Of a DNA stretch of 64,000 nt, positions 17,193 to 50,456 are shown in pieces. The DNA is taken from the NCBI RefSeq assembly GCF_013315695.1, contig NZ_CP054353.1. One strand, written 5' to 3'. The notes under the pieces were generated by a model. It made no database searches and was not told where the DNA came from. It saw nothing but the letters and a program-made list of their open reading frames with translations. The position numbers and the translations under genes were made by a program. Within the stretch, counting starts at the first letter, position 1, and the number at the start of each line of letters is the position of its first letter. The DNA comes from Escherichia coli (lineage in GTDB: Bacteria; Pseudomonadota; Gammaproteobacteria; Enterobacterales; Enterobacteriaceae).

Positions 17193-18242
17193 TTACATCA
17201 ATGGCTTTTGACCCCGCTGCCACCAGCGTAACAACAATCGATCGGCGCTCTCTGCCGCGCTGCCGGTGAATCGGTCAATGAGTCGTTTACGTTGCATATA
17301 GCGTACATTGACCACTTCACGGCCTTCCATCAGGCTAAGAATAACTTCATCACTGGTGTTGATTTCATCAACCAGGCCTTTCTCTACCGCCTGTTGTCCG
17401 TACCAGTGTTCACCCGTTGCCACCTGTTCAATATCCAGAGACGGACGCATACGCTTCACAAAATCTTTAAATAACTGATGCGTTTCGTTCAGCTCTTCGC
17501 GGAATTTCTCCCGCCCTTCTTCGGTGTTTTCACCCAGCAAGGTCAGCGTGCGCTTATACTGCCCGGCGGTGTGCAGTTCGATATCAATATCTTTGCTTTT
17601 CAGGAAGCGGTTAAAGTTGGGCATTTGTGCCACCACGCCAATGGAACCCACAATAGCAAACGGTGCGGAAACAATTTTGTCCGCCACACAGGCCATCATG
17701 TAACCGCCGCTGGCAGCGACTTTGTCTACCGTAACAGTTAAAGGAATGTTTTTATCACGCAGACGCTGCAGCTGCGAAGCCGCCAACCCGTAACCATGCA
17801 CCATGCCACCAGGGCTTTCCAGACGGAGCACAACCTGATCCTGCGGTTTGAATGCTGCGAGTACCGCCGTTATCTCTTCACGTAGCGAGTTCACTTCATG
17901 GGCGTCCATGCTGCCTTTAAAATCCAGCACCCAGACGCGAGGTTTACTGTCAGTTGCCATCTCGCCCAGTTTGGCTTTCGCTTTTGCTGCTTTCGCTTCT
18001 TGCTTGTGCTTTTTCTTCTGCGCTTTGTGCCACTGTTTTTGCTGATGTGAGTCCATCAGCGCCGCGGCCAGTTCTTCTTTCATCTCCTTATACTGTTCGC
18101 TGAGATTGTTGACCCGTAACTCGCCACGCTGGCGTTTATTACGTTGAGCAACATTGACTATAATGGCGGCAATCGCCGCAATCGCTAGCACAACGGTAAC
18201 GATTTTCGCCAAAAACAAACCATATTCAGACAACAATTCCAC
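17193..18242 (-). CDS. sohB: S49-family periplasmic protease SohB
   Basis: 349-aa ORF with N-terminal TM segment and ClpP/SppA-like domain. Confidence 0.9.
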   Translation of the reverse strand: MELLSEYGLFLAKIVTVVLAIAAIAAIIVNVAQRNKRQRGELRVNNLSEQYKEMKEELAAALMDSHQQKQWHKAQKKKHKQEAKAAKAKAKLGEMATDSKPRVWVLDFKGSMDAHEVNSLREEITAVLAAFKPQDQVVLRLESPGGMVHGYGLAASQLQRLRDKNIPLTVTVDKVAASGGYMMACVADKIVSAPFAIVGSIGVVAQMPNFNRFLKSKDIDIELHTAGQYKRTLTLLGENTEEGREKFREELNETHQLFKDFVKRMRPSLDIEQVATGEHWYGQQAVEKGLVDEINTSDEVILSLMEGREVVNVRYMQRKRLIDRFTGSAAESADRLLLRWWQRGQKPLM

Positions 18243-18461
18243 GAGTCCCCACCTTGGTTAAACAACGCTTTGGCTCACAGTTTACAACAGGCATGTTAAG
18301 CCGTCTCGCAGAGATGTTATTGCAGCGAAAGTATGACAAAGTATCCATTTTGCGGTGTTATCGCCCCAGGCTGATTGAAATGCCCTTCTGTTTCAGGCAT
18401 AAAGCCCCAAAGTCTTAAAGTACACTGGCAGCGCGACAGACAACGTCGTTGAGGAGTAGCC

Positions 18462-19220
18462 ATGCATTACCAGCCAAAACAAGATTTACTCAATGATCGC
18501 ATTATCCTGGTGACGGGAGCCAGCAATGGTATTGGTCGTGAAGCCGCGATGACGTATGCACGCTATGGTGCGACAGTGATTCTGTTGGGCCGTAATGAAG
18601 AAAAATTACGTCAGGTAGCCAGCCACATAAACGAAGAAACTGGGCGTCAGCCACAGTGGTTTATTCTCGATTTGCTGACCTGCACGTCCGAAGATTGCCA
18701 ACAACTGGCACAGCGCATTGCCGTTAATTATCCGCGTCTGGATGGTGTTTTGCATAATGCCGGATTGCTCGGCGATGTTTGCCCAATGAGCGAACAAAAT
18801 CCGCAGGTCTGGCAGGACGTCATGCAGGTCAACGTTAATGCCACCTTTATGCTCACCCAGGCACTGCTTCCTTTATTACTCAAATCGGACGCCGGTTCAC
18901 TGGTCTTTACTTCATCAAGCGTTGGACGTCAGGGGCGTGCAAACTGGGGCGCTTATGCAGCGTCGAAATTTGCCACCGAAGGGATGATGCAGGTACTGGC
19001 CGATGAATATCAGCAGCGCCTGCGCGTCAACTGCATTAACCCAGGCGGTACGCGCACCGCAATGCGTGCCAGCGCCTTCCCGACCGAAGATCCACAGAAA
19101 CTTAAAACACCCGCTGATATCATGCCGCTCTACCTCTGGCTGATGGGCGATGACAGCCGCCGTAAAACCGGCATGACCTTTGACGCCCAACCGGGCCGTA
19201 AACCAGGAATTTCCCAATGA
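18462..19220 (+). CDS. yciK: short-chain dehydrogenase/reductase YciK
   Basis: 252-aa ORF with TGASNGIG Rossmann motif. Confidence 0.9.
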   Translation: MHYQPKQDLLNDRIILVTGASNGIGREAAMTYARYGATVILLGRNEEKLRQVASHINEETGRQPQWFILDLLTCTSEDCQQLAQRIAVNYPRLDGVLHNAGLLGDVCPMSEQNPQVWQDVMQVNVNATFMLTQALLPLLLKSDAGSLVFTSSSVGRQGRANWGAYAASKFATEGMMQVLADEYQQRLRVNCINPGGTRTAMRASAFPTEDPQKLKTPADIMPLYLWLMGDDSRRKTGMTFDAQPGRKPGISQ

Positions 19221-19807
19221 GTGATGAACGCTACCAACAGCGTCAGCAGCGAGTGAAAGAAAAAGTCGATGCTCGTGTGGCCCAGGCCCAGGATGAACGC
19301 GGTATTATCATCGTCTTTACCGGCAATGGAAAAGGCAAAACCACCGCGGCATTTGGTACGGCAACACGCGCAGTTGGTCACGGAAAAAAAGTGGGCGTCG
19401 TGCAGTTTATTAAAGGCACCTGGCCTAATGGCGAACGAAATCTGCTGGAGCCGCATGGCGTTGAGTTTCAGGTAATGGCAACGGGCTTTACCTGGGATAC
19501 GCAGAATCGCGAGTCGGATACCGCCGCCTGCCGTGAAGTCTGGCAACATGCCAAACGGATGTTGGCAGATCCCTCACTGGATATGGTTTTGCTCGATGAG
19601 CTGACTTATATGGTCGCGTATGACTATTTGCCACCTGAAGAAGTGATTCAGGCGTTAAATGAACGTCCACATCAGCAAACCGTCATTATTACGGGTCGAG
19701 GCTGTCATCGGGATATACTCGAACTGGCGGATACGGTAAGTGAGTTACGCCCCGTGAAACATGCGTTTGATGCTGGCGTAAAAGCACAGATAGGGATTGA
19801 TTACTAA
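19217..19807 (+). CDS. btuR: cob(I)alamin adenosyltransferase
   Basis: 196-aa ORF with P-loop GNGKGKTTAAFG; overlaps yciK stop. Confidence 0.9.
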   Translation: MSDERYQQRQQRVKEKVDARVAQAQDERGIIIVFTGNGKGKTTAAFGTATRAVGHGKKVGVVQFIKGTWPNGERNLLEPHGVEFQVMATGFTWDTQNRESDTAACREVWQHAKRMLADPSLDMVLLDELTYMVAYDYLPPEEVIQALNERPHQQTVIITGRGCHRDILELADTVSELRPVKHAFDAGVKAQIGIDY

Positions 19808-19812
19808 GTGAA

Positions 19813-19846
19813 AGCACCTCAAAAGATTGCCTCTTGAGGTGCTTTA
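19813..19846. terminator. hairpin terminator downstream of btuR, at left edge of inserted islet
   Basis: Inverted repeat gcacctcaa...ttgaggtgc followed by T-rich tract. Confidence 0.5.
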
Positions 19847-19859
19847 ATCATAATTATAT

Positions 19860-20168
19860 TCAAGCGGCAATAGCAAAATTCAGAATGCGTATAATCTCAT
19901 TGAAATGTCTCTGATATGTTTCATGATTCTCAGCGTCAACATCTTCAATAAATAATATCAGTTCAGTAATTAGCGCATTAGCATCGTCATAATTTATCCC
20001 TGCTAACTCTGGCGAAGTTTCAGTACCATAGTTAATCGTCAGGTTGTTCATAACTGTGAGGATATGGATAAAATATTTATGACAAACATTACATGTGGTT
20101 TTATTGCCCAGGGTATTATACAGCATATCAAGTAATGCCAGTATTCTACGATTTTGCACATCGTTCAT
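19860..20168 (-). CDS. hypothetical 102-aa protein, co-operonic with upstream lipoprotein gene (islet)
   Basis: ORF 11 bp downstream of lipoprotein ORF stop; AT-rich; not recognised. Confidence 0.5.
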   Translation of the reverse strand: MNDVQNRRILALLDMLYNTLGNKTTCNVCHKYFIHILTVMNNLTINYGTETSPELAGINYDDANALITELILFIEDVDAENHETYQRHFNEIIRILNFAIAA

Positions 20169-20178
20169 AAAAAGCCTC

Positions 20179-21144
20179 CTATAACATTATTCCGCTGGCA
20201 ATAAGTAATTTTGCCAGCCCCTCAGACGCCTTTAACCCACTAATGACCTGTGCGCGCAATATCTCATTTAACCTTTTTTGTTCAGCTGCCGTGCGTGTTT
20301 TATTAACATATAAATTATTCAGATAATCACCCTTATCTATAAAGGCATTTAAAGCCTCAATTGCGGGCATGGCAGGTGCCGATGCCTGTAGCCTGGTTTC
20401 ATTCACATTGATTACTGAACTTAGAAACTCCTTCCTGTTTTTCAGAGTGTTAAACTCTGTATTCTTAGCGTTTTTAGATGCCGTACTATAATAAAACATA
20501 TTATCATGCACATTCGCAAAGGTATAATTTTCAATCTTATTGCTTTTTGTATAAATATCATTACGCAAAACTGTCATGTTCCCTATAAGTCTTACCCAGT
20601 TTTCATCTACCGTTTTGCCTATTTTTCCAGAATTGACTTTTATTATATATAACTCATTGAAATAATTTACCAAATCTTTAACCGCTGCTGCAGATTGTGC
20701 TAAATCTTTGCTATGTGAAATACCAAGTAGTGTTTGTGCGTTATTTGCGTGATCCAGAGCCTGTTTAAGTAATGCCACTTGCTGACTTTCTGTCGTTGCC
20801 ATGTCCTCATTCAGAAGTTCTACATAAGCGCTCATGCTATTAATGACTTCCATTGAAGCCAGTAATTTTTCTTTCTCGAAAGTGACTAATTGTACTTTTT
20901 TTGTATTTGGCCCAGGGCGCTGGCATAATTTTCCGCCATTACCATCACCGCCTATATCTATGGTATAATCAGGTCGCAATGCACAATCCGGATTAGTCGC
21001 ATAAAAATTAACAAGGAAGTTTTCACGAGAAGCATAGTATTGTTTAAAGAAACTTGCATTCGCCGCAACCGCCTTGTTACCCGCAGTAATAACAGTTTCA
21101 GCTTGTTCATTCTTCAATGCTTCGGTTGCACAACCTGAAAGCAT
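20179..21144 (-). CDS. hypothetical lipoprotein, 5' end (signal-peptide region) split by IS1
   Basis: ORF begins MLSGCATE (lipobox Cys); remaining N-terminal codons MIRYSGIFLSLL lie across IS1 at 21921..21957 on the minus strand; low GC. Confidence 0.6.
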   Translation of the reverse strand: MLSGCATEALKNEQAETVITAGNKAVAANASFFKQYYASRENFLVNFYATNPDCALRPDYTIDIGGDGNGGKLCQRPGPNTKKVQLVTFEKEKLLASMEVINSMSAYVELLNEDMATTESQQVALLKQALDHANNAQTLLGISHSKDLAQSAAAVKDLVNYFNELYIIKVNSGKIGKTVDENWVRLIGNMTVLRNDIYTKSNKIENYTFANVHDNMFYYSTASKNAKNTEFNTLKNRKEFLSSVINVNETRLQASAPAMPAIEALNAFIDKGDYLNNLYVNKTRTAAEQKRLNEILRAQVISGLKASEGLAKLLIASGIML

Positions 21145-21207
21145 TAACAGCGGGTGATGCTGCCAACTTACTGATTTAGTGTATGATGGTGTTTTTGAGG
21201 TGCTCCA

Positions 21208-21483
21208 GTGGCTTCTGTTTCTATCAGCTGTCCCTCCTGTTCAGCTACTGACGGGGTGGTGCGTAACGGCAAAAGCACCGCCGGACATCAGCGCTATCTC
21301 TGCTCTCACTGCCGTAAAACATGGCAACTGCAGTTCACTTACACCGCTTCTCAACCCGGTACGCACCAGAAAATCATTGATATGGCCATGAATGGCGTTG
21401 GATGCCGGGCAACAGCCCGCATTATGGGCGTTGGCCTCAACACGATTTTACGTCACTTAAAAAACTCAGGCCGCAGTCGGTAA
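21208..21483 (+). CDS. insA: IS1 InsA
   Basis: 91-aa [46 protein letters not shown]... (zinc finger plus HTH). Confidence 0.95.
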
Positions 21484-21905
21484 CCTCGCGCATACAGCCG
21501 GGCAGTGACGTCATCGTCTGCGCGGAAATGGACGAACAGTGGGGCTATGTCGGGGCTAAATCGCGCCAGCGCTGGCTGTTTTACGCGTATGACAGGCTCC
21601 GGAAGACGGTTGTTGCGCACGTATTCGGTGAACGCACTATGGCGACGCTGGGGCGTCTTATGAGCCTGCTGTCACCCTTTGACGTGGTGATATGGATGAC
21701 GGATGGCTGGCCGCTGTATGAATCCCGCCTGAAGGGAAAGCTGCACGTAATCAGCAAGCGATATACGCAGCGAATTGAGCGGCATAACCTGAATCTGAGG
21801 CAGCACCTGGCACGGCTGGGACGGAAGTCGCTGTCGTTCTCAAAATCGGTGGAGCTGCATGACAAAGTCATCGGGCATTATCTGAACATAAAACACTATC
21901 AATAA
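21402..21905 (+). CDS. insB: IS1 InsB (expressed as InsAB' transposase by -1 frameshift)
   Basis: 167-aa ORF overlapping insA 3' end, typical IS1 organisation. Confidence 0.9.
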
Positions 21906-22126
21906 GTTGGAGTCATTACCTTAACAGCGATAGAAATATTCCACTATATCTAATCATAACCCACCTCTTGACGTTGAGTTTATCTCAGATAATTAAATAG
22001 TAATGTGGCTATTTCCTGGTAATATTCATAAGCAAGTATGAAATTAAATTAAAATACTGCGACTATTTATCATACTTCAAATGAAGAAAAGGCCCCGCAG
22101 GGCCTTTATTTTATACTTAACTTAAA

Positions 22127-23002
22127 TTAACCGTTATTATTACGTCCGCCAGAACGACGACCGCCGCTCACCTGACTGTGACGTTTCACCGCACGACGAA
22201 TCTGATTCGCCTTCATGCGACGACGGTCTTTTTCTACAGCGACTTTAGAGCTGGTTTCTGGCGGTAGCTCCACCAGTTCGCGCAGATAGTTAGTCTGGGC
22301 GAGGTCCAGCTCCGTCCAGCCACCGCGTGGCAGACCTTTTGGCAGTGGGATATCACCGTAACGAACACGGATCAGGCGGCTCACCTGCACACCAACCGCT
22401 TCCCAAAGACGACGAACTTCACGGTTACGGCCTTCGGTCAGAGTAACGTTGTACCACTGGTTGATCCCTTCGCCGCCGCTGAACTTGATGGTTTTAAAGG
22501 CTGCCGGACCATCTTCCAACTGCACGCCACGACTCAAATCACGCAGTTTCGCGTCGTCAACCTGACCAAATACACGCACGGCATATTCACGTTCAACTTC
22601 ACGGCTTGGGTGCATTAAACGGTTTGCCAGTTCACCATCGGTGGTGAACAGCAGCAGACCACAGGTATTAACGTCCAGGCGCCCCACGGCAATCCAGCGT
22701 GCGCCACGCAGTTTTGGCAGACGGTCAAACACCGTTGGACGTCCTTCCGGATCGTTACGGGTACACAACTCACCTTCCGGTTTGTAATAGGCCAGAACGC
22801 GACAAATTTGTTCAGCGGACTCACGTACCGAAATCAGGTGACCATCGATACGGATTTTCAATCCAGGGGTAACTTCAACGCGATCGCCGAGTTTAGCAAT
22901 TTTGCCATCAACACTCACACGACCGGCTTCAATAATAGATTCGATTTCACGGCGAGAGCCGTGGCCGGCACGCGCCAGCACTTTCTGTAGCTTTTCGCTC
23001 AT
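22127..23002 (-). CDS. rluB: 23S rRNA pseudouridine(2605) synthase
   Basis: 291-aa ORF with S4 domain and RsuA/RluB catalytic domain, Arg/Gly-rich C-terminal tail. Confidence 0.9.
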
Positions 23003-23212
23003 AGAGCTTCCTTTTGGTGTCGCCTTCCCAGGCGTCTGATATGCTTTTGTGCAACAGTGAGTCAGAATTTACATCTGACTCACTGATAGTAAAGTCTGTT
23101 TGAACTCTTCAGGCCTTAAGTAAACGACTCGACGTTTATCGGCCTGGCTTTGAGGCGCAACATACTACACTATCTTTATGGTTAAAGCTTGTTTCGATTA
23201 ACATCAGCTTAA

Positions 23213-25108
23213 TTACCAGCCACCACCGCCTCCGCCACCCGCCCCGCCGCCAGCACCACCACCGGAATAACTTCGCCCCAACAAACTGGTATTGGCCCCC
23301 AGGCTCAGGTGCATCTGTAATGAAAACAAAACGCCACTACGGGCAATTTCCGGGGCGTGAACAGCCGCTGTGAGTGATGGGGTGATACGTGCTGCCCATT
23401 CTTTTCCAAGGTTTGCCGAGACTGCCCAACCTAGCAACGCGTAATCCAGTTTCCGTGTTTCCCCTTTCCGCCGCCGCCCACTGTGTGTTGCTGCCTCTTT
23501 ACGCGCAAGATAGTTAACGATAGCTTCACCGTGGGCATAACGTTGCTGCCCAGTTTGGGTAAACTTTGGCAGAAAAATATACCCCATGCCAGTGAGATAA
23601 CCGGTCAGGAAAACAGCGCTAAAATAACCCGCTGGCATATACCAGTAAAAGAATACATCTCCGACATTGATATAGAGAGAATAAAAGGCCACGCCTGAAC
23701 AAATCAGCGGTAAAAACAAAGTGATGATTACACGATTAACGCAAGGCTTGTCATCATCGCGGACAAACAAAAGCTCAAGGGAACAAAATAAAAAAGGAAG
23801 AAGCCAGCAGATCATAATAAACATATCGCCAACCAGACTCATTCCTGCCCAACCTACGGGACTCAGGTTACCGTAGAGAATGACCGCCAATATCGCCATT
23901 CCGCCCCATTGCAAAAACGTATCTGGTCGATAAAACGAAGACTTTTTACGCGGCAGATAAAATTTCTGCATCCGTAAAAATGCCCTGCGTAAGACTCTGT
24001 TGCGTCTCCCCGTAAGAACGACCTTATCGCCTTTACGAAATAACGCTTCCAGTAATAACTGCTCTGCGGGCAGTAATACCGCATTATTTCTGGTCGCGCC
24101 TTCATTAACACAAATCAGGATTTGCTGGTTCTTGTCATACTGATCTTCCAGATGAATTTTTCCTTTAACAATCAGATTTACGATATCGGCACAAAAACCT
24201 TTATCGTCGTAAACCAGCTTCGCATCGAGACGTAACATGCCGGGTGTGTAATCTGGCGGAATGACATCGGTTTCAATCACATCTACCGGCGTAAATTGCG
24301 GCCTGCGCTTCCAGAGATATAACCATCCACACGCCAGGAAGAGACACGGAAACCAAATTAACAACGATGACGTAGAGGGTAAAAGAAGATGGCTGAAAAT
24401 ATTCGTCGTTTGTGGTGCCGGGGCATTACCAAGTAAAGCGTGAGGCCAGCGGTAGAGGACCGTGAAATCTTCACGATAAAACGGATCGCGGGATTCAATT
24501 CTTCCGTCCTCAAGGATGCGGCCATTTCGATATGTGTCGCCCTCTTCTCCAGTAAAGAGATCGATTTCGCTAAATGGATTACCCGCAATATCAGGCAACT
24601 TGAGTGAAAATAGGGTCTTATAAATTTCAAACGGCCAGTGGTTACCGGTCACGTTCCAGATTAGCAGATCAGAATCCCCTTCACGCAGGAAAGCATTTTT
24701 AACCTGATAATGAATTTGATAATGATAGTCGCCTTGAGGCAAGAAACGTTGTTTATCGCCCACGACAATACTCATTAACCCGATATGCCAGTCAAGATGC
24801 CAGGGTTCAGGAATACCATCACGGGTGACGCCAACAATATGATAGTTCAGCAGTGCAGCGTCCCCATCAGGCTGCATCCAGAGTCGTGGTAAATCACGAT
24901 AAAATCCGTGCTTAATCTGCTGATTTCGCGCCTGAAAATGAATATTTTCTTTGATGTCGAGCACCCCATCCGGTTGCAGAGTGGCTTCAACATCAAAGAG
25001 AGAGATCCCTTCTTCATAAGAAGGGATCTCCGTGTTTTTCGCATAACTCAACGAAGAGAAAAAAAGCCCAACTATCAACAGCAAAATGCAGCGAAACTTC
25101 CCTGCCAT
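23213..25108 (-). CDS. yciQ: DUF2207 membrane protein YciQ
   Basis: 631-aa ORF with signal peptide, TM segments and Gly-rich C-terminus; synteny. Confidence 0.85.
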   Translation of the reverse strand: MAGKFRCILLLIVGLFFSSLSYAKNTEIPSYEEGISLFDVEATLQPDGVLDIKENIHFQARNQQIKHGFYRDLPRLWMQPDGDAALLNYHIVGVTRDGIPEPWHLDWHIGLMSIVVGDKQRFLPQGDYHYQIHYQVKNAFLREGDSDLLIWNVTGNHWPFEIYKTLFSLKLPDIAGNPFSEIDLFTGEEGDTYRNGRILEDGRIESRDPFYREDFTVLYRWPHALLGNAPAPQTTNIFSHLLLPSTSSLLIWFPCLFLACGWLYLWKRRPQFTPVDVIETDVIPPDYTPGMLRLDAKLVYDDKGFCADIVNLIVKGKIHLEDQYDKNQQILICVNEGATRNNAVLLPAEQLLLEALFRKGDKVVLTGRRNRVLRRAFLRMQKFYLPRKKSSFYRPDTFLQWGGMAILAVILYGNLSPVGWAGMSLVGDMFIMICWLLPFLFCSLELLFVRDDDKPCVNRVIITLFLPLICSGVAFYSLYINVGDVFFYWYMPAGYFSAVFLTGYLTGMGYIFLPKFTQTGQQRYAHGEAIVNYLARKEAATHSGRRRKGETRKLDYALLGWAVSANLGKEWAARITPSLTAAVHAPEIARSGVLFSLQMHLSLGANTSLLGRSYSGGGAGGGAGGGGGGGW

Positions 25109-34921: not shown

Positions 34922-34976
34922 GGTGATGCTGCCAACTTACTGATTTAGTGTATGATGGTGTTTTTGAGGTGCTCCA

Positions 34977-40100: not shown

Positions 40101-40330
40101 GAATCCTCCCGGGCGGGATAATGTTGTGAGTCAGATAAGGAGCAGGCTGAAGTCCGGAAGTTACAGGACAATGGCAGAAGGGAGACTACAGCCCGCAATT
40201 CGAAAAAGACCGCGCAGTTGCGCAGAGTGATTACTATGGGGTATTATTCGCCAGCTGAAATATTACTTCACGTTTTATTGTTTATTCCTTGCCGCCCGCG
40301 TCTCCCAGCGCGGGCTTTTTTTGTCCATAA

Positions 40331-40568
40331 GAAAGCCCCTCCGGAGAGGGGCTAAAGCCGCGTATCTGTATCATCATGCACATGGTGCCGGGTGCCTCCC
40401 GGTGAGTTCAGCCCGGTGCCACTAAACCCGCGTCATTCTCGTTTTGATAATCAGAGATTATACCGTCACCAGTCGCCCCTCCGCTCAGGGGGATTCACCA
40501 TGCGAAATTTTTTTAACAAATGCCCAGTCTGACAGGCAACTGTCAACTTACTGAATTGTGAGCAACAT
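40331..40568. repeat. hairpin-rich noncoding repeat unit, copy A
   Basis: Shares blocks aaagcccctccggagaggggct, catggtgccgggtgcctcccggtga, cccctccgc.cagggggattcaccatgc, ttttaacaaa, ctgaattgtgag with copy B. Confidence 0.7.
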
Positions 40569-40815
40569 AGCATTTAACGGGGAACCTGTTTTCTGCAGTA
40601 AAAAGGCCCACCGGAGCGGATGGGCCTGGAAGGATAGCGGTCATGTGATGCCGGTTTCCCGGTAACTCAGCACCGGTATCTGAGTCAACGTTTTCTCTAC
40701 TGGGTCATTTCCGATACGCCCTGCCTGCTGACAGGCTTTCATCACATCTGAAAATATAGCACCCTGACTGATACTGTAGTACCTAAGGTTCCAGAAACTG
40801 TGATGTATCCGGCAC

Positions 40816-41036
40816 AGAAAAGCCCCTCCGGAGAGGGGCTGGAGAGTGGCGCTATGTGCCATTGCATGGTGCCGGGTGCCTCCCGGTGAATTCAGTACCA
40901 GCACCTGAATCCGCGATTATCCCATATACCTACTCGCTGATTGCCCCTCCGCACAGGGGGATTCACCATGCCAGTTTCTTTTAACAAACTCCCCGCAAAC
41001 CAGACAACAGTCAACCGCCTGAATTGTGAGACATTT
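40816..41036. repeat. hairpin-rich noncoding repeat unit, copy B
   Basis: Degenerate direct repeat of copy A (~485 bp period); a third partial copy of the ccgg-hairpin block lies at ~40690..40740. Confidence 0.7.
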
Positions 41037-41074
41037 AAAAAAAGCCCGCAAAAGCGAGCCAGGGAAAATAAGTG

Positions 41075-41151
41075 TGGCGCGTTGTACTGGATTCGAACCA
41101 GTGACCGATTGCTTAGAAGGCAATTGCTCTGTCCGGCTGAGCTAACAACGC
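41075..41151 (-). tRNA. tRNA-Arg (anticodon UCU)
   Basis: Manual fold: acceptor GCGTTGT/ACAACGC, D-arm GCTC..GAGC, anticodon stem ATTGC/GCAAT with loop CTTCTAA, T-arm ACTGG TTCGAAT CCAGT, CCA end. Confidence 0.9.
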
Positions 41152-41164
41152 AGGATACAGATAA

Positions 41165-41241
41165 TGGACCGCCTTCGGGGACCCGAACTCCGCGCAACCA
41201 GCTTCGAAAGCTGGCGCTCTTTCCTGATGAGCTAATGGCGG
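41165..41241 (-). tRNA. tRNA-Arg-like (anticodon UCG), possibly degenerate
   Basis: Perfect anticodon stem CCAGC/GCTGG with loop TTTCGAA, but one mismatch each in acceptor and T stems and T-loop TTCGGGT lacks the conserved A58. Confidence 0.5.
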
Positions 41242-41248
41242 TATGTGA

Positions 41249-41324
41249 TGGTGGCCCTTGCTGGATTTGAACCAGCGACCTGGCGATTATGAGTCGCTCG
41301 CTCTCACCACTGAGCTAAAGGGCC
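41249..41324 (-). tRNA. tRNA-Ile2/Met type (anticodon CAU), ileX/ileZ-like
   Basis: GGCCCTTTAGCTCAGTGGTGAGAGCGAGCGACTCATAATCGCCAGGTCGCTGGTTCAAATCCAGCAAGGGCCACCA; near-identical to remembered E. coli tRNA-Ile2 (k2CAU). Confidence 0.85.
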
Positions 41325-41373
41325 GGGAGCAGAATAATAATGGTGCGTAATTAATTCTGCAATCTCATCCGTT

Positions 41374-42423
41374 TCAAACGATTAAATCCTGAACTTCCCT
41401 GACTGTCTGCTCAAAACGTCCGGTCTCCAGTTCAACGCCAATCGCACGACGCCCAAGCGCCAGTGCCGCTTTTACCGTTGAACCTGAGCCCATAAAAAAA
41501 TCTGCAACCAGGTCACCCGGACGACTGCTTGCGCTGATTATCTGCTGCAGCATTTCTGCCGGTTTTTCGCACGGATGTTTCCCGGGATAGAACTGCACCG
41601 GTTTATGTGTCCACACATCCGTGTACGGCACCTGCGCCGTCACACCAAAATACCGCCGCAGATGCTTATATTCACTCTGCAGCTCCACATACTGCCGGTT
41701 CAGTGACGTATACGTATCCACCAGCTGGTGGTGGGGCTTTTCCAGTTCACCGCGCTGATGTTTCTCTTCTGCCACCCGGGCAAACAGCGACTGTAATTTC
41801 AGATAATCGCTTTCGTTCGGTAGCTGCCACTGACTGGCACTGAACCAGTGCGACACCATGTTTTTCTTTCCTGTGGCATCTGCAATCTGTTTTGCCGTTA
41901 TCCCCAGGGCAGCGCGCGCATCACGAAAGTAAGAAATCAGCGGGGCCATCACATGCTGTTTCAGTGCACTGCCCTTCGCCGCATACCCGGCATCTTTCGG
42001 ACGATACGGCCCCTGATAATGTTCCGCGAACAGAATGCGCTCTGTGGCGGGGAAATACGCCCGCAGGCTTTCCTTGTTGCATCCGTTCCAGCGTCCGGAC
42101 GGCTTCGCCCAGATAATATGGTTCAGCACACTGAAGCGTTCACGCATCATGATTTCGATATCAGATGCCAGGCGATGACCACAGAACAGGTAAAGACTTC
42201 CGACAGGTTTCAGCACCCGCCAGAACTGCGCCAGACACTGGTCCAGCCACTTCAGGTAATCATCGTCGCCCTTCCACTGGTTATCCCAGCCCTCAGGCTT
42301 CACTTTAAAGTACGGCGGGTCCGTGACTATCAGGTCAACAGAATTTTCGGGTAACGACCGGATAAATTCCAGGCAGTCGGCGTTGATTAACTCACAACTG
42401 GATATTTTTACAGTATTAAGCAT
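41374..42423 (-). CDS. orphan DNA methyltransferase (N6-adenine/N4-cytosine class, DPPY motif)
   Basis: 349-aa ORF with DPPY catalytic motif (LIVTDPPYF) and C-terminal AdoMet-binding FxGSGST motif; no adjacent restriction endonuclease gene. Confidence 0.8.
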   Translation of the reverse strand: MLNTVKISSCELINADCLEFIRSLPENSVDLIVTDPPYFKVKPEGWDNQWKGDDDYLKWLDQCLAQFWRVLKPVGSLYLFCGHRLASDIEIMMRERFSVLNHIIWAKPSGRWNGCNKESLRAYFPATERILFAEHYQGPYRPKDAGYAAKGSALKQHVMAPLISYFRDARAALGITAKQIADATGKKNMVSHWFSASQWQLPNESDYLKLQSLFARVAEEKHQRGELEKPHHQLVDTYTSLNRQYVELQSEYKHLRRYFGVTAQVPYTDVWTHKPVQFYPGKHPCEKPAEMLQQIISASSRPGDLVADFFMGSGSTVKAALALGRRAIGVELETGRFEQTVREVQDLIV

Positions 42424-42573
42424 GGATCATTAAGCCTGTCTCTGATAGGCTCATTCTGCTTTTGCGCAAAGCAGTGGGCCTGAGGTTTGCTTGTGAACCC
42501 AACGCATGAGCAGATGGCTGGTGGGTGCCCCTAACACCCACCAGCCGCCCATTTACCACAAATAAAAAAGCCT

Positions 42574-42858
42574 TCAGGACTGAAGGCGTCTGTAACAACC
42601 GAACTGATAGTCTGCCAGACCCGCCATAACCAGCTGGGTCAGTATTAACTGGCAGCGTTCGCGTGAAAGGTAAGTATTCTGCGCTATCTCCCCGACTGTC
42701 GCCGGTTCGGTAACGCTTAATTCATTAAACACCACTCTGGCGGTTTCTGTCATATCCTGCTGTTTTAGCATGTCTTTTTCCTTTTTCCGGTTAACGTGAC
42801 ATACCAATAACTCTTGTCGAAAAAGCCAGCAAGCTGAAAGACCCGTATTCGCAACCAC
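42574..42858 (-). CDS. hypothetical small phage protein (possible HTH)
   Basis: ORF between the Q-like gene/terminator and the methyltransferase; start may be an internal Met (MLKQQDMTETAR…). Confidence 0.4.
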   Translation of the reverse strand: MVANTGLSACWLFRQELLVCHVNRKKEKDMLKQQDMTETARVVFNELSVTEPATVGEIAQNTYLSRERCQLILTQLVMAGLADYQFGCYRRLQS

Positions 42859-42896
42859 CAGCGTGTTTACTGTACTGACGCGATTTTGGGCATAAA

Positions 42897-42930
42897 AAAA
42901 AACCGCCTGACGGCAGTTTTTTTTCTTACT
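42897..42930 (-). terminator. candidate tR'-like terminator downstream of Q-like gene
   Basis: A-run, short GC hairpin (ccgcctgacggcag), T-run; reads as terminator on both strands. Confidence 0.45.
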
Positions 42931-42985
42931 TTGCCATCGCGTACAAAATCGGCAAAATATCAGATTTATATGAAACGTACGCTAT

Positions 42986-43675
42986 TTAATTGACTTTTGC
43001 AATATCTCGTCGTGAAAAAGTCGCTTTTTGTTGCGCTCTTATTTTCACGGTGCAAATCACAGATTCTCTATCGAGACTCTTAAAAATATCGCACATCTCA
43101 CGCCAGTAGTTCGCATAATTATGGCTCCAGTTATCAGGCTTAACTCCACACAGTCTGGCAAGCTCCTGTCTCTGGTAGACCTCACACCCGGTAATCCATC
43201 CTCTGACATCCTGTGCCGCCAGCCAGATCAACTTCTTCACGCGCTCCTGCGTTTTCCCTGCAATTTTTCTGGTGCCGTACCGGGTTTTAAATTCATTCCA
43301 CACCCACTGCGTTATCGCGATCTGATATTCCCAACAAATACTCCCGCTGTAACACCACAACAACCAGGCTTTATGATGTTCTTCAAGAGACAGAACAGCC
43401 CGCCGCCACGATGATGTCGAAAACTCAACCGGACTGACGAGAGGAATTGACACCCCCTTCGCCAGCGATTGCTTTCCCGGGATTGGTGGATTATCCCGCG
43501 TTATCATTTTTCCAGTCACTTCATCGCGGTACCGGATTTTTTTACGCCTGTAACGCCCTGTATCAAACATGGCATTCTCCTGCCAGGCCTCAAGCTGCCC
43601 TTTTGTTGATCCACTCAAATCGGCGGTGGCAATCATGAGTTGCTCACGAACAAACTGTAAATACTGGTTATTCAT
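42986..43675 (-). CDS. putative late-gene antiterminator (Q-like), assigned by position
   Basis: 229-aa ORF immediately downstream of rusA and upstream of terminator and late genes; sequence itself not confidently recognised. Confidence 0.4.
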   Translation of the reverse strand: MNNQYLQFVREQLMIATADLSGSTKGQLEAWQENAMFDTGRYRRKKIRYRDEVTGKMITRDNPPIPGKQSLAKGVSIPLVSPVEFSTSSWRRAVLSLEEHHKAWLLWCYSGSICWEYQIAITQWVWNEFKTRYGTRKIAGKTQERVKKLIWLAAQDVRGWITGCEVYQRQELARLCGVKPDNWSHNYANYWREMCDIFKSLDRESVICTVKIRAQQKATFSRRDIAKVN

Positions 43676-44037
43676 GCGTACTCCAGTTCTGTGATTTTTA
43701 TCCCCAACCGCCCACCAGGAACAAGCTGACCGCGCACAATATTAATTTCATCAAACTGCTCGTCGTCTATGAGCAGCCCCGCATGCGTCAGTACATCCAG
43801 TGGTGCCTTCAGGATATTGTCCAGGTCACGACGGCGCTTATCCGGTGGCTCTGCAATAATTTCTATTGCCGGCCTTCCGGACAGGTTTAATTTCAGTTGC
43901 TGCTGGCGAACAATAAGCGCCACATCACGGCGATAACGCTCACCGACTTTTGATACAAAATATGTGCTGCCACGACGTCGCCAGTAAGTGTTCACCGTTG
44001 GCGGGTAAGGCAAAACAAATTCTATGCGTTCAGTCAT
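43672..44037 (-). CDS. rusA: Holliday-junction resolvase RusA
   Basis: 121-aa ORF with RusA motifs (LPYPPTVNTYW…, PDKRRRDLDNILKAPLDVLTHAGLLIDD). Confidence 0.85.
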   Translation of the reverse strand: MTERIEFVLPYPPTVNTYWRRRGSTYFVSKVGERYRRDVALIVRQQQLKLNLSGRPAIEIIAEPPDKRRRDLDNILKAPLDVLTHAGLLIDDEQFDEINIVRGQLVPGGRLGIKITELEYA

Positions 44038-45093
44038 TTATGCTTTCCACTTCAGAACACCCGAATTTCTCGCGTGCATTAAAAAACGAATCAGCAACAA
44101 CAGCTGGCTGCCGTGTTTTTCTTCAAAATCTTTTACCCCGGCGTGTAGTTCGCTATGGCATTTACGGCACAGCGGAATAACAAACAAATCATCAGCCTTT
44201 GTTCCCATCCCTCCCAGTCCATGACCAATGATGTGATGCGGATCATCTGCCTGATTGCCACACGTCATGCATTTCTGCGTTTTTACCCAACGCGTGTATA
44301 CAGGCATCTCTTCCCGTTGTGATTTCTGGCGCTGGAGATACTGAGCCGGTGACTCCGGATCAACGGCAATGCTGACCACCGTCTTTTCCTGTGGCGGGTT
44401 TTGCTGGTGGGCGTGAGGCAGCGGCGCAAGATTTTTTGTGCGCTGCTTCAGTATGCTGGTGGCGGTCTGCTCTCCCGGTACGATGTCGCTTTCACGGTAC
44501 ATTGAGCGGATTTTTTCCGCACGCAACCCCAGCGAACGACGTAATACCGCTTCCGGTAGCGCGTCCGCCACCTGATTGCGGACCGCCCACCAGGATAATT
44601 CAGCCAGCGATAATTCCCGTTCCTGCGAGCCATTCATTGCATGGCGTATGACGTCAATCATCCATGCAGACAGGTTTTGGTGAGCAAGTTGCCCGAGTGA
44701 TTCGGAGGTCTGGTCGCGCAGCTGGTTGTCGCAGTGCCAGCACAACACCATTGCGCCGGTACCATAACGGTGAATGACGGTTTCACTGTGGTGATAATCG
44801 CCGTGTGGCCACTGGCAGGATTTAACATGGCGCAGTAACCAGTCAGACAATGCGCCAGCGCCACCAGCAGCACGAATCACTCGTTCGTCGCTGAAAAATG
44901 GCAGTAATGATTTATCCTCCGCCAGCGGCTGGCGAACGGCAGGAACGACCCCGGACGGCAGATTACGCATGCTTTTCGGTTCCGGCTCCACCAGTACCCG
45001 GGTATTGTGGAATACCGGCATGGATTCACGGCCCGGCTTAACGATCACCAGCCCGAGTTCCGGTACCAGAACAGGTCGAAGTAATACCCGCAC
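44038..45093 (-). CDS. nin-region protein, DUF968-like with Cys/His-rich C-terminal region
   Basis: 351-aa ORF; C-terminus …CMTCGNQADDPHHIIGHGLGG…CRKCHSELH…; translationally coupled to upstream orf90. Confidence 0.45.
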   Translation of the reverse strand: MRVLLRPVLVPELGLVIVKPGRESMPVFHNTRVLVEPEPKSMRNLPSGVVPAVRQPLAEDKSLLPFFSDERVIRAAGGAGALSDWLLRHVKSCQWPHGDYHHSETVIHRYGTGAMVLCWHCDNQLRDQTSESLGQLAHQNLSAWMIDVIRHAMNGSQERELSLAELSWWAVRNQVADALPEAVLRRSLGLRAEKIRSMYRESDIVPGEQTATSILKQRTKNLAPLPHAHQQNPPQEKTVVSIAVDPESPAQYLQRQKSQREEMPVYTRWVKTQKCMTCGNQADDPHHIIGHGLGGMGTKADDLFVIPLCRKCHSELHAGVKDFEEKHGSQLLLLIRFLMHARNSGVLKWKA

Positions 45094-45094
45094 G

Positions 45095-45367
45095 TTACCT
45101 CCAGATGCGTTGCTGGAATGTGCGGGACGGACGCGGTGGGCGTTCAGAGTAAGGAAGCCTGACGGAGATTATCCAGTGACGATAATCGAGGCTGAGGGCT
45201 TTCTTAATCTCGTATCCGCGTCTGCGGTAGTTATGAATTAGCCATTCGGCCTGTTCTTCAGTACATGGTGGGTGTTGGTACCAGTCGGTTTTAAATGCGT
45301 GTGAACGCCGCCCATGCCGGATGGCAAGGTCGGTATCAGAATTGTGAAATTTGGTTTTGTGCGCCAT
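45095..45367 (-). CDS. hypothetical nin-region protein
   Basis: 90-aa ORF whose stop abuts the next start. Confidence 0.45.
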   Translation of the reverse strand: MAHKTKFHNSDTDLAIRHGRRSHAFKTDWYQHPPCTEEQAEWLIHNYRRRGYEIKKALSLDYRHWIISVRLPYSERPPRPSRTFQQRIWR

Positions 45368-45534
45368 CTGTTTTCTCTGCTGGCGCAGCAGGTGTCAGGT
45401 GTTCAGGCTGACGTGCGAATTGTAAACCAGAATGCCAGAAAAAAACAAAACCCGCCGAAGCGGGTTAAGTGCGGGTGCGTTGAGGATGCCTGACACATCA
45501 GAGGTGGCGAGGGATTTCTCCCCCGCCAGGTCTC

Positions 45535-45690
45535 TTACTCCTCAGGTTCGTAAGCTGTGAAGACAGCGACCTCCGTCTGGCCGGTTCGGAGTCGTACCTC
45601 GCAGAGGTCTTTCCTCGTTACCAGTGCCGTCACTATGACGGTTAAACAGATGACGATCAGGGCGATTAACATCGCCTTTTGCTGCTTCAT
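45535..45690 (-). CDS. hok: Hok/Gef-family type I toxin (HokD/RelF-like)
   Basis: MKQQKAMLIALIVICLTVIVTALVTRKDLCEVRLRTGQTEVAVFTAYEPEE, essentially the remembered HokD sequence; extended upstream frame (to 45747) corresponds to mok-like leader. Confidence 0.9.
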   Translation of the reverse strand: MKQQKAMLIALIVICLTVIVTALVTRKDLCEVRLRTGQTEVAVFTAYEPEE

Positions 45691-45927
45691 AGCCTGCTTC
45701 CCCTTGCCTTTCGGCACGTAAGAGGCTAACCTACATTTGTGAGACATAGATTGGGCCTCAGATTAATGTTAAGCGTCTTGCAGGACGCGAAATGTTAACT
45801 GGGGCTTTTCTCTATCTGCCTTTCAGTGTTCATGCCTGAGACAGATAGCCTCAAGCACCCGCAGCCATTCTACTTAACTCACGTCACCTCGCCAATATGA
45901 AATCAATCAGAAAGGTGATCCATAAAA

Positions 45928-46614
45928 TCACTCCTTCTCTTCTTTTCCGTAGTGGAGTTGGCCAATTTTGATAAGAGGGCGTCCCTGAGATTTGCGGTGT
46001 AGATTGGTATCGCGCAGAGAATACACACAGCCACAATATTCCTGCTGATAGAATTTTTCGCGCTTGCTGATTTCAATCATACGGGACGAGCCGCCCTGCT
46101 TGCGCCAGTTATAATCCCAGTACACCATACCCGGATAATGCGCAACAGCTCGCCGCCCACACTCGTTAACCTGCTGCATATTTTTCCAGCGTGAAATGCC
46201 CAGTGAACTGCTGATCACACTGAAACCATTTTCAGCAGCGTACAACGCTGTCCGCTCAAAACGCATGTCAAAACACATGGTACAACGGATCCCCCTCTCA
46301 GGCTCCCATTCCATTCCTTTGGCACGTTCAAACCAGTTGTCGGTGTCGTAATCAGCATCGATAAACGGCACGCCGTGTTGTTCAGCAAAGCGAATATTTT
46401 CATCCTTACGAATTAAATACTCTTTCTGAGGATGAATGTTCGGGTTGTAGAAAAAGATGGTGTAGTCGATTCCCGAGGCCTGAAGCGCCTCCATCACTTC
46501 ACCGGAACATGGAGCACAGCAAGAGTGCAGTAGTAGTTTGTTTGCCCCGTTTGGGAGCTCCAATTTAGGCCGTTTGAAATCAGCAATAGTCATAAATATT
46601 TTTATTGGGGTCAT
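45928..46614 (-). CDS. QueH-like (DUF208) putative epoxyqueuosine reductase
   Basis: 228-aa ORF with [11 protein letters not shown] motif plus additional Cys clusters (CTMCFD, YCGC) recalled as QueH/DUF208 signature; not verified by search. Confidence 0.5.
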
Positions 46615-46767
46615 GAAAATAGCACAGAGTGTAGCATCAGAGCAGGTCTATCGGGAATATATGTCTAAATCTGGTAATATCTGGTTTTGACGCAAAGCGG
46701 ACAACCACGCTGGCTCTACCCTGCGCCATGAAAATGTCAATTCACATCTGAACTAATGCTCTTTAAT

Positions 46768-47208
46768 CTAGTAACGTCTAAAATACCTAACATTTCCTTG
46801 ATAAAATGCCAGTACACGCTGCATAGCTTCGCTCTTCCGGCACTCGCGACAGATTATATTCAGGCGCCTGTCGTAGCGGCGTATTTCGCCGTCTGGTAAC
46901 GACCAGATAAGGTCCGGATCAACCACTGCAGGTTTCTTCACCTTTGCCCTTGAGAGTTTTTTGCGAGCATTTTGCCAGTCCTTACGCGCCTGTTCAGACG
47001 GGAATAACCCGTAACCAGAGTTGTATACATCGCCACTGGCAACCAGCTCTCTGGCGAGAACACTCATCAGATATCTTGTCGCACCTGTCCTGGCTTCCAG
47101 TTGCCGCAACGTCTCGCGACCGCTCAGACGTACAAGTTCAACAACCTGCCCTTTAATTTTTTCCCGCTCTTCTTGTGTAAATACTTTTGCCATAAGCGCC
47201 TCCGGCAA
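46768..47208 (-). CDS. hypothetical phage protein
   Basis: 146-aa ORF in replication/nin region. Confidence 0.5.
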   Translation of the reverse strand: MPEALMAKVFTQEEREKIKGQVVELVRLSGRETLRQLEARTGATRYLMSVLARELVASGDVYNSGYGLFPSEQARKDWQNARKKLSRAKVKKPAVVDPDLIWSLPDGEIRRYDRRLNIICRECRKSEAMQRVLAFYQGNVRYFRRY

Positions 47209-47979
47209 TCACTTTTCCGATACAACACGGCGGGAAGAATCAGTAATCTGTCGAACAATATCCCGGTGCTTGTTCAGCTCCCGCAGCGCGGCGCAGACTC
47301 GCTCCCACTTCTGAACATCACTTTTCGCCCTGCGCAGCGCCAGGTTTGCCCTGCGAAGGGACGGAAAAATCAGCTCATCTGCTTGCGTTTCGGTAAACGA
47401 TGGCAACGGCTGCACAATGTCCGCCACAGTTTCTGTTTTAATTTCTTCCTGTGTTGCGGCTTCCCGGACTGGTAACGCAGCACCTGCTGGCTGAGGAAAG
47501 GCCTTACCATCACTTTCCGTTACCAGCGCGGCTTTCGGCTCTGCTGGTAAATTATCGCCCGGCATGCAGTAACGAAATTTACCGTTCTGATTAACGCGTG
47601 CCAGCCGCCCCGTTGCGGTTACCACCGCCAGCGTGGAAGCAACCTTGCGAGTACTGACACCGAACTTACCCGCCAGTTCCTCACACGTTTTAGCCCCATC
47701 CTGACCGATAAACTCAATCATCATGTCTGCGGTAACTTTTTGTTCGACCTCCCCGGTCAGCATATCCTGTGCTTCAGATTTTACTGGCCGCTCTTCGGTT
47801 ACCCGGGATTCACCTTCGCCAGCCAGAAACCAGGTGTGACCAGTTTTATCAACGACGCCTTTTCTTTTGAGTTCCCACAGCTCGTTGACAGCCTCTTCAC
47901 GACTGATTCCAAGGCGAGCTGCCACCACATGTGAAGAGGCTTTTTTCAGTGCTTTCAGTGCGTCAGATACGGTTTCCAT
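47209..47979 (-). CDS. hypothetical phage protein with putative winged-helix segment
   Basis: 256-aa ORF immediately downstream of DnaC-like gene. Confidence 0.5.
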   Translation of the reverse strand: METVSDALKALKKASSHVVAARLGISREEAVNELWELKRKGVVDKTGHTWFLAGEGESRVTEERPVKSEAQDMLTGEVEQKVTADMMIEFIGQDGAKTCEELAGKFGVSTRKVASTLAVVTATGRLARVNQNGKFRYCMPGDNLPAEPKAALVTESDGKAFPQPAGAALPVREAATQEEIKTETVADIVQPLPSFTETQADELIFPSLRRANLALRRAKSDVQKWERVCAALRELNKHRDIVRQITDSSRRVVSEK

Positions 47980-48000
47980 TAAAATTTCCTCCGGACAAAA

Positions 48001-48747
48001 TTACTTCACAACCCTCATATTGCTGACATTTGGACGCCAGCTATCCCAGTTAAACGTCACCCATCGACCACCGTTCATGGTCATGCGGTCCATAATCCTC
48101 TCACCAAGAAGCGTACTCATTGCGGCATGATTCAGGTTTGTTAACATCCCGACACTGCACAGTGATGCTGTCCGGCGATCAATTATCTGGTGCAATACCA
48201 CCTGCTCGTTTTTCGTCTCCCGCTGAACGCCTATTTCATCCAGGACCAGCAAATCAACCCCGCAAAGCTCCTGTAAAAATTTTTCCCCGGATTTGCCGTT
48301 GTCGTAGCTGTCATGCAACACGCTCATGACGTCAGACACGGTGACGATAATCACGCTGCGCCCCTTCACCATCAGCCGGTTGCCCATCGCCGCTGCAAGG
48401 TGATTTTTCCCGGTGCCGGTTTTACCGCTGAACACAAAATTCGTGCACCCGGTCATCAGTTCGTCAGCTATGGATTTGGCCTGGCTCAGCGCGTATTTTT
48501 GCCCGTCGTTCTGCACCTGATAATTTGCAAACGAGCATTTGCTGTGCAGAGGCTGGATGCCCGAACGATTCAGGATTTTTTCCACCCGCAACTGGCGATT
48601 CTGGCGGTTAATCTCCTCGCTGCGTTTTCGTCCTTCAGCAAGTTGCCATTCCCGCCACTCCTCCACCGTCCGGTACGGTGGAACCGACCCCTGTGGTGCA
48701 AGTCTGCGAATACGTTCAAGACCCCCAACTGCCGCAATGTTTTTCAT
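48001..48747 (-). CDS. DnaC/IstB-like replication ATPase (helicase loader)
   Basis: 248-aa ORF with Walker A GKTGTGKNHLAAA and Walker B LLVLDEIG. Confidence 0.85.
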   Translation of the reverse strand: MKNIAAVGGLERIRRLAPQGSVPPYRTVEEWREWQLAEGRKRSEEINRQNRQLRVEKILNRSGIQPLHSKCSFANYQVQNDGQKYALSQAKSIADELMTGCTNFVFSGKTGTGKNHLAAAMGNRLMVKGRSVIIVTVSDVMSVLHDSYDNGKSGEKFLQELCGVDLLVLDEIGVQRETKNEQVVLHQIIDRRTASLCSVGMLTNLNHAAMSTLLGERIMDRMTMNGGRWVTFNWDSWRPNVSNMRVVK

Positions 48748-48753
48748 GACACG

Positions 48754-49731: not shown

Positions 49732-49738
49732 CGTGCTT

Positions 49739-50164: not shown

Positions 50165-50429
50165 GAATCAAGCTCCTAGAAAGTGGTTGTGTTAACGTTT
50201 TGGTATCTTCCAGCTCGGGCCAAATATTCATCCAATCAAAAGGCCTTAGTTGCTGACGTGTAACTTCACCATTACTGGCTCGCTCAATAAGGACACATAA
50301 CGATGCCCCTAACACTTGACCTTTACTCAATGCCTTTCTTAGATAACCGATGCTGGTACCACACTCGCATGCAAACATACGCTGTTCATCTGACGAAAGA
50401 GAATTGAGAAATATTCTTAATTCTTCCAT
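50148..50429 (-). CDS. Cro-like/YdaS-family HTH regulator
   Basis: 93-aa ORF with HTH (ECGTSIGYLRKALSKGQ) and YdaS-like C-terminus (QQLRPFDWMNIWPEL); divergent from repressor gene. Confidence 0.7.
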   Translation of the reverse strand: MEELRIFLNSLSSDEQRMFACECGTSIGYLRKALSKGQVLGASLCVLIERASNGEVTRQQLRPFDWMNIWPELEDTKTLTQPLSRSLIHENQA

Positions 50430-50456
50430 AGCTACTCCTTAGTAAACACAGCAAAG

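Follow-up and report, generated by a model that had tools for sequence, protein, structure and literature searches.

The 64,000-nucleotide stretch of Escherichia coli DNA analysed here (the window; RefSeq assembly GCF_013315695.1, contig NZ_CP054353.1) carries, between the convergent genes btuR/cobO (19217-19807, plus strand) and rluB (22127-23002, minus strand), a minus-strand operon of two genes, encoding a lipoprotein and a small protein of 102 amino acids (aa), together with a 768-bp insertion sequence (IS), IS1. The spacer that holds them (19808-22126) is 2319 bp long, compared with just 39 bp between rluB and btuR in strain K-12. Sequence and profile comparisons across genomes show that the operon is a member of an uncharacterised two-gene family and an old resident of this spacer in Escherichia and Citrobacter. 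The features at the locus are listed below.

19811-19845, no strand: hairpin terminator common to btuR (plus) and the small gene (minus), an inverted repeat with 15-nt arms, 93% complementary, and a 5-nt loop
19860-20168, minus strand: gene of the small partner, 102 aa, an open reading frame (ORF) intact in the window
20179-21152, minus strand: 3' part of the lipoprotein gene, from the end of codon 10 to codon 333 and the stop codon (ORF)
21144-21152, no strand: left copy of the 9-bp target-site duplication, TTAACAGCG, a single copy in the uninterrupted strain AF3
21153-21920, plus strand: IS1, 768 bp, with 23-nt terminal inverted repeats, insA (21208-21483) and insB (21402-21905), from ORFs and inverted repeats
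21921-21929, no strand: right copy of the 9-bp target-site duplication, TTAACAGCG, a direct repeat of the left copy
21921-21957, minus strand: 5' fragment of the lipoprotein gene, codons 1-12 (MIRYSGIFLSLL) and 1 nt, from sequence
21958-22087, minus strand: AT-rich region upstream of the operon, presumed promoter and 5' untranslated region, with the Shine-Dalgarno sequence AAGAGGTGG, now cut off from the gene body
22088-22107, no strand: bidirectional rluB terminator hairpin, 8-bp stem with 5 GC pairs and T-runs on both strands

Leaving IS1 aside, the cassette has a GC content of 36% (38% in the lipoprotein gene and 35% in the small gene), compared with 51% in btuR and 54% in rluB. The first hairpin falls between the btuR stop (19807) and that of the small gene (19860). 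Within the operon the TAG stop of the lipoprotein gene and the ATG of the small gene are 10 nt apart, not 11 bp as given in a preliminary description of this DNA, and an AGGAGG Shine-Dalgarno sequence overlaps the stop codon. A consensus scan upstream of the operon gave no convincing sigma-70 match.

The inserted element shows all the hallmarks of IS1, i.e. a length of ~768 bp, inverted repeats of ~23 bp, the insA and insB frames and a target duplication of 8-9 bp, and it breaks the lipoprotein gene after codon 12, within the signal-peptide region. Joining 21957..21921 to 21143..20179 restores an intact ORF of 1002 nt, encoding 333 aa (MIRYSGIFLSLLMLSGC...). The surviving ORF of the broken gene comprises 321 aa from Met13 (ATG at 21144) and lacks the n- and h-regions of the signal peptide. 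As IS1 removes both the promoter and these regions, any residual product would be neither exported nor lipidated, and the window copy of the operon is an inactive pseudogene made by IS1. The left terminal repeat of IS1 recurs as an exact copy at 34922-34944, so that the window holds at least two IS1 elements.

An uninterrupted version of the locus is found in strain AF3 (NZ_OZ547117.1), which is 99.97-100% identical to window positions 18000-21152 and 21921-24000, with one mismatch over 5.2 kb in total; 9 nt, the single target copy, belong to both alignments. The preliminary description had placed an AT-rich cassette absent from K-12 between btuR and rluB, with the two genes, an equivalent gene-restoring join, and an IS1 that severed the promoter and first 12 codons with a clean 9-bp duplication, all of which agrees with the K-12 spacer, the intact 333-aa ORF and the empty site of AF3.

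Among 5426 complete E. coli genomes, the set used for all population counts below, this IS1 junction occurs in one, MSB1_4I (NZ_LR898874.1), which is 100% identical to the window over 19700-22300 and in which RefSeq annotates an IS1A family transposase and the same truncated lipoprotein ORF as a hypothetical protein. MSB1_4I carries in addition an ISKpn26 (IS5-like) element inside the 102-aa gene, at the equivalent of window positions 20003-20006, and in this lineage both operon genes were thus disrupted one after the other. In strain EC488 an unrelated IS1 variant (93% identical) lies between rluB and the promoter region of another allele of the cassette (allele 2, described below), at the equivalent of 22106-22113, which makes three separate IS insertions at this AT-rich locus among about 1240 carriers. 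The type strain of Escherichia albertii (NBRC 107761) has its lipoprotein gene split into ORFs of 244 and 96 aa, with the 102-aa gene intact; yciQ is also missing in that strain, between yciO and rluB. Almost all carriers have two intact genes, annotated as "hypothetical protein" in RefSeq. Since the IS1 junction recurs in just one other genome and most carriers are intact, inactivation of the operon is rare and lineage-specific.

The restored N-terminus of the first product, M-I-R-YSGIFLSLLM-L-S-G-C17, has the features of a lipoprotein signal peptide, with the lipobox L-S-G-C17 and alanine at position +2, and it is the sole hydrophobic 19-mer of the protein. Under the E. coli Lol rule an alanine at +2, with no aspartate there, predicts sorting to the outer membrane. 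The lipobox cysteine is invariant in 41 family members; the other invariant residues of the family are C66, C86 and Y119, and C66 stands exactly 49 residues past the lipid-anchored cysteine in nearly every member. An AlphaFold2 (AF2) model built from the 41-sequence alignment (predicted local distance difference test, pLDDT, 71; predicted template modelling score, pTM, 0.67) contains eight long helices and a beta-hairpin (residues 73-97) flanked by C66 and C86, whereas a model from a 14-sequence alignment was unusable (pLDDT 45). The hairpin is the most variable part of the lipoprotein in both length and sequence; codons 61-90, which cover this region, contain insertions and deletions, and in one pair of alleles the nonsynonymous substitution rate (dN) is about equal to the synonymous rate (dS). 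The alleles are homologous from end to end, with 52-67% aa identity. An internal duplication into two four-helix bundles was not detectable. Fold searches of the PDB returned generic helical bundles only, and Foldseek against AFDB50 returned the family itself together with models labelled DUF3829 or imelysin-like, at template modelling (TM) scores of 0.5-0.75.

The small partner is acidic, with an isoelectric point (pI) of 4.8, and has neither a signal peptide nor a transmembrane segment. Across the family the partners have a pI of 4.3-5.0 in 11 of 12 examples and share one nearly invariant cysteine. A gene for 96-107 aa follows the lipoprotein gene at a distance of 1-26 nt in nine of the ten distant settings for which downstream sequence was available; in the exception an alanine-rich protein of 269 aa with C-terminal membrane helices is encoded downstream instead (L014, 2171-2980), and it may represent an alternative type of partner. 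A heme or zinc site was considered for the small protein on account of a CxxCH motif and a zf-FCS match at E 0.14, and was rejected because only the first cysteine is kept in the distant partners and the protein has no export signal.

Neither protein, from E. coli or from distant members, matches Pfam, NCBIfam, PHROGs, PADLOC or the PDB other than by noise or through the signal peptide. Four E. coli proteins and nine members or partners from distant hosts were compared with PADLOC-DB v2, with nothing below E 0.04, and in PHROGs weak matches at the level of the signal peptide appeared at E>0.04 (phrog_890, "lipoprotein", E 0.14). A literature search on the WP accessions, rluB/btuR hotspots, CFT073 locus tags, DUF3829 and lipoprotein exclusion found nothing on this pair. 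Membership of DUF3829/YiiG was rejected, as none of the 41 members has a Pfam match to it and a comparison with E. coli YiiG by hhalign gave a probability of 4.5%, over the signal peptide only. The imelysin-like (Peptidase_M75) family was likewise rejected, with no Pfam match in any of the 41 members and no conserved HxxE. The exclusion-lipoprotein families Cor, Llp, Bor and TraT were set aside too, given that only the weak signal-peptide-level PHROGs matches were obtained. The expectation that neither product would fall in a named family was therefore correct, and so were the assignment of the first product as a lipoprotein, in view of the invariant lipobox cysteine, and that of the 102-aa ORF as a real partner, in view of its conserved downstream position and the substitution ratios given below.

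Carriers of the cassette make up about 23% of the E. coli genomes (1234-1237 of 5426), and the K-12-type empty site is found in 4182 (77%). The allele present in the window (allele 1) occurs in 424 genomes and allele 2 in 812, including sequence type 131 (ST131), and a third allele, that of strain AF40, occurs in a few. A sliding-window comparison of the allele classes gave 98-100% DNA identity in rluB and the first ~60 lipoprotein codons and 95-100% in the operon upstream region (21958..22087), compared with 50-70% from about codon 66 of the lipoprotein through the small gene. In this diverged block dS between alleles ranges from 0.9 to saturation, as against 0.03-0.09 in rluB. For the lipoprotein, dN/dS is 0.17-0.26 between alleles and 0.07 in comparison with Escherichia whittamii, and for the small gene it is 0.08-0.19 between alleles and species. 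Ratios well below 1, together with ORFs kept in more than 1200 genomes, show that both genes are real, constrained and under purifying selection. On the other side of the cassette, btuR has a dS of 0.10-0.38 between E. coli strains, much above that of rluB. An elevated value is expected from linkage to the diverged block, and it suggests that the old block, or its recombination tract, reaches into btuR.

E. whittamii, E. albertii and Citrobacter have the same gene pair at this position, between rluB and btuR. In DNA, allele 1 and the E. whittamii cassette are 93-100% identical, and their flanks 91-98%, an evenness that indicates vertical orthology; for allele 2 the closest relative is E. albertii. 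No integrase, flanking or att-like repeat or remnant of the K-12 spacer was found at the rluB-btuR locus. Shared synteny in other species and flank-like divergence point to an old resident locus and not to a recent insertion, so that the proposal of an islet inserted at the btuR/rluB terminator is not supported. By these comparisons E. coli is shown to combine three allele classes of deep divergence with a null allele that is common; the alleles predate the species, and the K-12 state is best taken as a null (deletion) allele. Loci under long-term balancing or diversifying selection typically show such a pattern, as do loci that face co-evolving antagonists.

Word-indexed searches reached relatives in Escherichia and Citrobacter only, and an exhaustive profile search went further, with 59 matches, the full-length ones being lipoproteins of 324-357 aa at 17-25% identity. 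Their hosts include Buttiauxella, Raoultella, Klebsiella, Rahnella, Pantoea, Methylomonas and a Chlorobiaceae metagenome-assembled genome (MAG), and all are labelled hypothetical. These settings show distant relatives of the pair to be sporadic in other Proteobacteria as mobile cargo. In Buttiauxella agrestis the pair forms an insert of 34-40% GC in a P2-like prophage of 55-60% GC, placed precisely at the junction of the gpS-like tail-completion gene (phrog_26) and the baseplate V gene (phrog_6142), a site that in P2 holds the non-essential orf30. The gpS-like ORF upstream of the pair (L013, 4388-4762) encodes 124 aa and matches only positions 84-197 of the 321 of phrog_26; it may have been truncated by insertion of the pair. 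The Klebsiella variicola pair is found 543 bp away from a complete Hachiman system (HamA, E 1e-135; HamB, E 1e-278), on an island bounded by an integrase, and that of Raoultella lies in an island with an integrase, AlpA, putAbiC, HicB and the candidate system PDC-S15. An ORF of 72 aa (MSTEVIKSQVVGINAVIASLQTHDLSPCYD...), ~350 bp upstream of the pair, is 97% identical between these two islands (L026, 8434-8652; L029, 9461-9679), which may therefore carry a three-gene unit; no counterpart was found upstream of the E. coli cassette.

In Methylomonas, VapBC, Fic and a Y1 transposase are encoded beside the pair. Rahnella sp. PCH160 has it among resolvases and transposases, with a 426-aa protein containing a pore-forming colicin domain (PF01024) encoded 2.4 kb downstream (L028, 12506-13786). 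A TraX-family gene is found 2-4 kb upstream of the pair in both Pantoea (L016, 3338-4114) and Rahnella (L028, 4065-4772), adjoining an H-NS-like gene in the former and a resolvase in the latter, and may mark a mobile element common to the two. The contexts are few in all, with defence or phage-hotspot settings in Klebsiella, Raoultella and Buttiauxella and a housekeeping setting in Escherichia and Citrobacter. A phage origin of the family was considered and rejected, since no match was obtained in INPHARED or in four IMG/VR scans, and the sole match in a plasmid search was an E. coli record of chromosome size.

We propose, with a probability of roughly 0.4, that the module acts in biological conflict at the level of the cell envelope, most likely in phage exclusion or defence. 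This reading draws on the population pattern expected of a co-evolving antagonist, on the defence-island and prophage contexts and on the precedent of helical exclusion lipoproteins. A fuller version, which we hold more tentatively, is that of a previously unrecognised two-component envelope exclusion or defence system, in which the hairpin of an outer-membrane helical lipoprotein sets the specificity and the second component is the small acidic cytoplasmic protein. Such a system would travel as cargo of defence islands and prophages, and in Escherichia it would have been kept since before the species arose as a trans-species polymorphism in which three specificities and a null are balanced. 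Under the main proposal of envelope conflict, Sec would export the lipoprotein, which would then receive its lipid and be directed to the outer membrane; there its elongated bundle of helices would display the variable hairpin, clamped by a disulfide, at the anchor-distal end. The hairpin may serve as a recognition surface for an incoming antagonist, either a phage tail or ejection component or a bacteriocin, while the small partner could attend to the pre-export protein in the cytoplasm, whether by chaperoning, regulating or neutralising it. The preliminary description had regarded the layout as typical of toxin/immunity, defence or surface-modulation modules; the part on defence and conflict is circumstantially favoured by the P2-like moron site, Hachiman and the islands with AbiC and toxin-antitoxin (TA) genes, and no toxin or immunity domain was detected.

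Several observations weigh against envelope conflict. By sequence comparison the pair has no homology to any known system, and PADLOC v2, which covers known as well as candidate systems, was negative, like PHROGs, Pfam, NCBIfam and the PDB. The E. coli operon sits between housekeeping genes, outside defence islands, and the argument from genomic neighbourhood is built on about five contexts. Neither the INPHARED phage genomes nor the four IMG/VR scans yielded a member of the family, which leaves the Buttiauxella prophage as a single instance. That the hairpin would sit far from the anchor is deduced from how long the helices are in a model of medium confidence. The partner is poorly conserved (11-27% identity), one example being basic and without the cysteine, and, because the two proteins are predicted to reside in different compartments, it is not evident that they would work in a direct complex. 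Finally, the deep alleles could have arisen through immune-driven or some other selection, or through old introgression with no selection involved.

One other possible explanation is that the operon encodes a toxin and its neutraliser, i.e. a membrane-active helical lipoprotein bound by the acidic cytoplasmic partner before export. The Im proteins of nuclease colicins, which neutralise the colicin, are likewise small (~85 aa), acidic and helical, and the compact layout with a strong Shine-Dalgarno sequence overlapping the upstream stop, as well as the ~100-aa partner with its pI of 4.3-5.0, would suit such a role. However, no toxin, pore-forming or enzymatic domain is detectable, and the exported lipoprotein and the cytoplasmic partner would be in separate compartments after export. 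A conserved N-terminus, a variable body and a co-varying downstream gene also recall such loci, but the alleles are homologous along their whole length, with no domain swaps, and co-variation is explained equally by linkage in one diverged block. The lipoprotein gene was the first to be disrupted in both decayed lineages (one comprising the window and MSB1_4I, the other the type strain of E. albertii), an order that comes from two cases and fits neutral decay equally well. Although the colicin gene 2.4 kb from the Rahnella pair and the TA genes near the Methylomonas and Raoultella pairs are in keeping with this explanation, we regard it as improbable. A polymorphic toxin-immunity pair in the strict sense was rejected, given the lack of a toxin domain, variants that are homologous throughout and a partner without an export signal.

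It is also conceivable, though in our view doubtful, that the first product is a surface lipoprotein engaged with the host, for instance in serum resistance, adhesion or as an antigen (cf. Bor/Iss and TraT), with alleles diversified by host immunity. Deep trans-species allele classes and a variable loop bounded by a disulfide would be expected of such a protein; the operon is common in extra-intestinal lineages such as ST131, and prophage morons often carry lipoproteins of this type, e.g. lambda Bor. On the other hand, the protein has no similarity to Bor, Iss or TraT and there is no evidence of surface exposure; three Enterobacterales contexts hold defence genes and not virulence genes, and homologues occur in environmental bacteria (Methylomonas, the Chlorobiaceae MAG, Pantoea and Rahnella), where host immunity is irrelevant.

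A more prosaic explanation is that of an ordinary, dispensable periplasmic helical lipoprotein of the YiiG/DUF3829 or imelysin type, serving ligand or metal binding or envelope physiology and lost in most E. coli, with the mobile contexts being incidental. The AFDB50 models so labelled (TM 0.5-0.75), vertical inheritance among housekeeping genes in Escherichia and Citrobacter and absence from the phage collections searched are all compatible with it. We judge it unlikely, because similarity to E. coli YiiG by hhalign is confined to the signal peptide, no member matches Pfam DUF3829 or Peptidase_M75 or has a conserved HxxE motif, PDB searches yield generic helical bundles only, and it leaves unexplained both the 50-70% identical alleles within flanks of 98-100% and the repeated occurrence in defence and mobile islands. 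Recent acquisition of a foreign islet at the btuR/rluB terminator would account for the low GC content (36% against 51-54% in the flanks) and the absence from K-12 and 77% of E. coli, but is very improbable in view of the occupied locus in E. whittamii, E. albertii and Citrobacter, the like divergence of cassette and flanks between allele 1 and E. whittamii and the lack of an integrase, att-like repeat or spacer remnant.

Elsewhere in the window, Rfam matches at 40323-52405 are typical of a lambdoid or cryptic prophage region and comprise the following.

40323-40532 and 40810-41000: STnc100, two copies (Rfam)
41078-41324: three tRNA genes (Rfam)
45685-45860: sok antitoxin RNA (Rfam)
52354-52405: DicF (Rfam)

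If envelope exclusion or defence is indeed the function, the family has been missed by current defence catalogues, as it has no PADLOC match and its more than 1200 RefSeq copies are labelled "hypothetical protein". With roughly a quarter of E. coli carrying the operon, ST131 included, it could then also bear on which phages are chosen for therapy. Whatever its function, the locus offers a compact and clean case of very old alleles at a fixed site beside a common null, which should be convenient for the study of balancing selection in bacteria.

Among known systems, the exclusion lipoproteins (Cor of phi80 and N15, Llp of T5, Ltp of Streptococcus thermophilus phage TP-J34, TraT of F and Bor of lambda) resemble the present protein as accessory envelope lipoproteins, and one homologous pair is a low-GC moron of a P2-like prophage. 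Ltp of TP-J34 is a helical lipoprotein that blocks DNA injection. They differ in showing no sequence similarity to it and in size, ~60-240 aa compared with 333 aa, and the present lipoprotein has a conserved small partner, predicted to be cytoplasmic, and is chromosomal and vertically inherited in Escherichia. The DUF3829/YiiG and imelysin-like (Peptidase_M75) proteins are alike as all-helical lipoproteins of ~330-350 aa, with Foldseek TM scores of 0.5-0.75 to AFDB models so labelled, but the family described here lacks YiiG profile similarity, a Pfam match, HxxE and an internal duplication.

Polymorphic toxin-immunity loci such as colicin/Im and CdiA-CT/CdiI are similar in that their 5' part is conserved and the rest divergent, with a small acidic gene immediately downstream that co-varies. 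Here, however, the alleles are homologous end to end (52-67% aa identity) without a toxin domain, and as the identical 5' block runs into rluB, its edge is a recombination boundary and not a domain boundary. The E. coli hsd "immigration control region", rfb and fliC, hypervariable chromosomal loci under balancing selection, differ from the rluB-btuR operon in their unrelated gene content, but they share with it a fixed position, sharply bounded old alleles, near-identical flanks and the presence of trans-species and null alleles.

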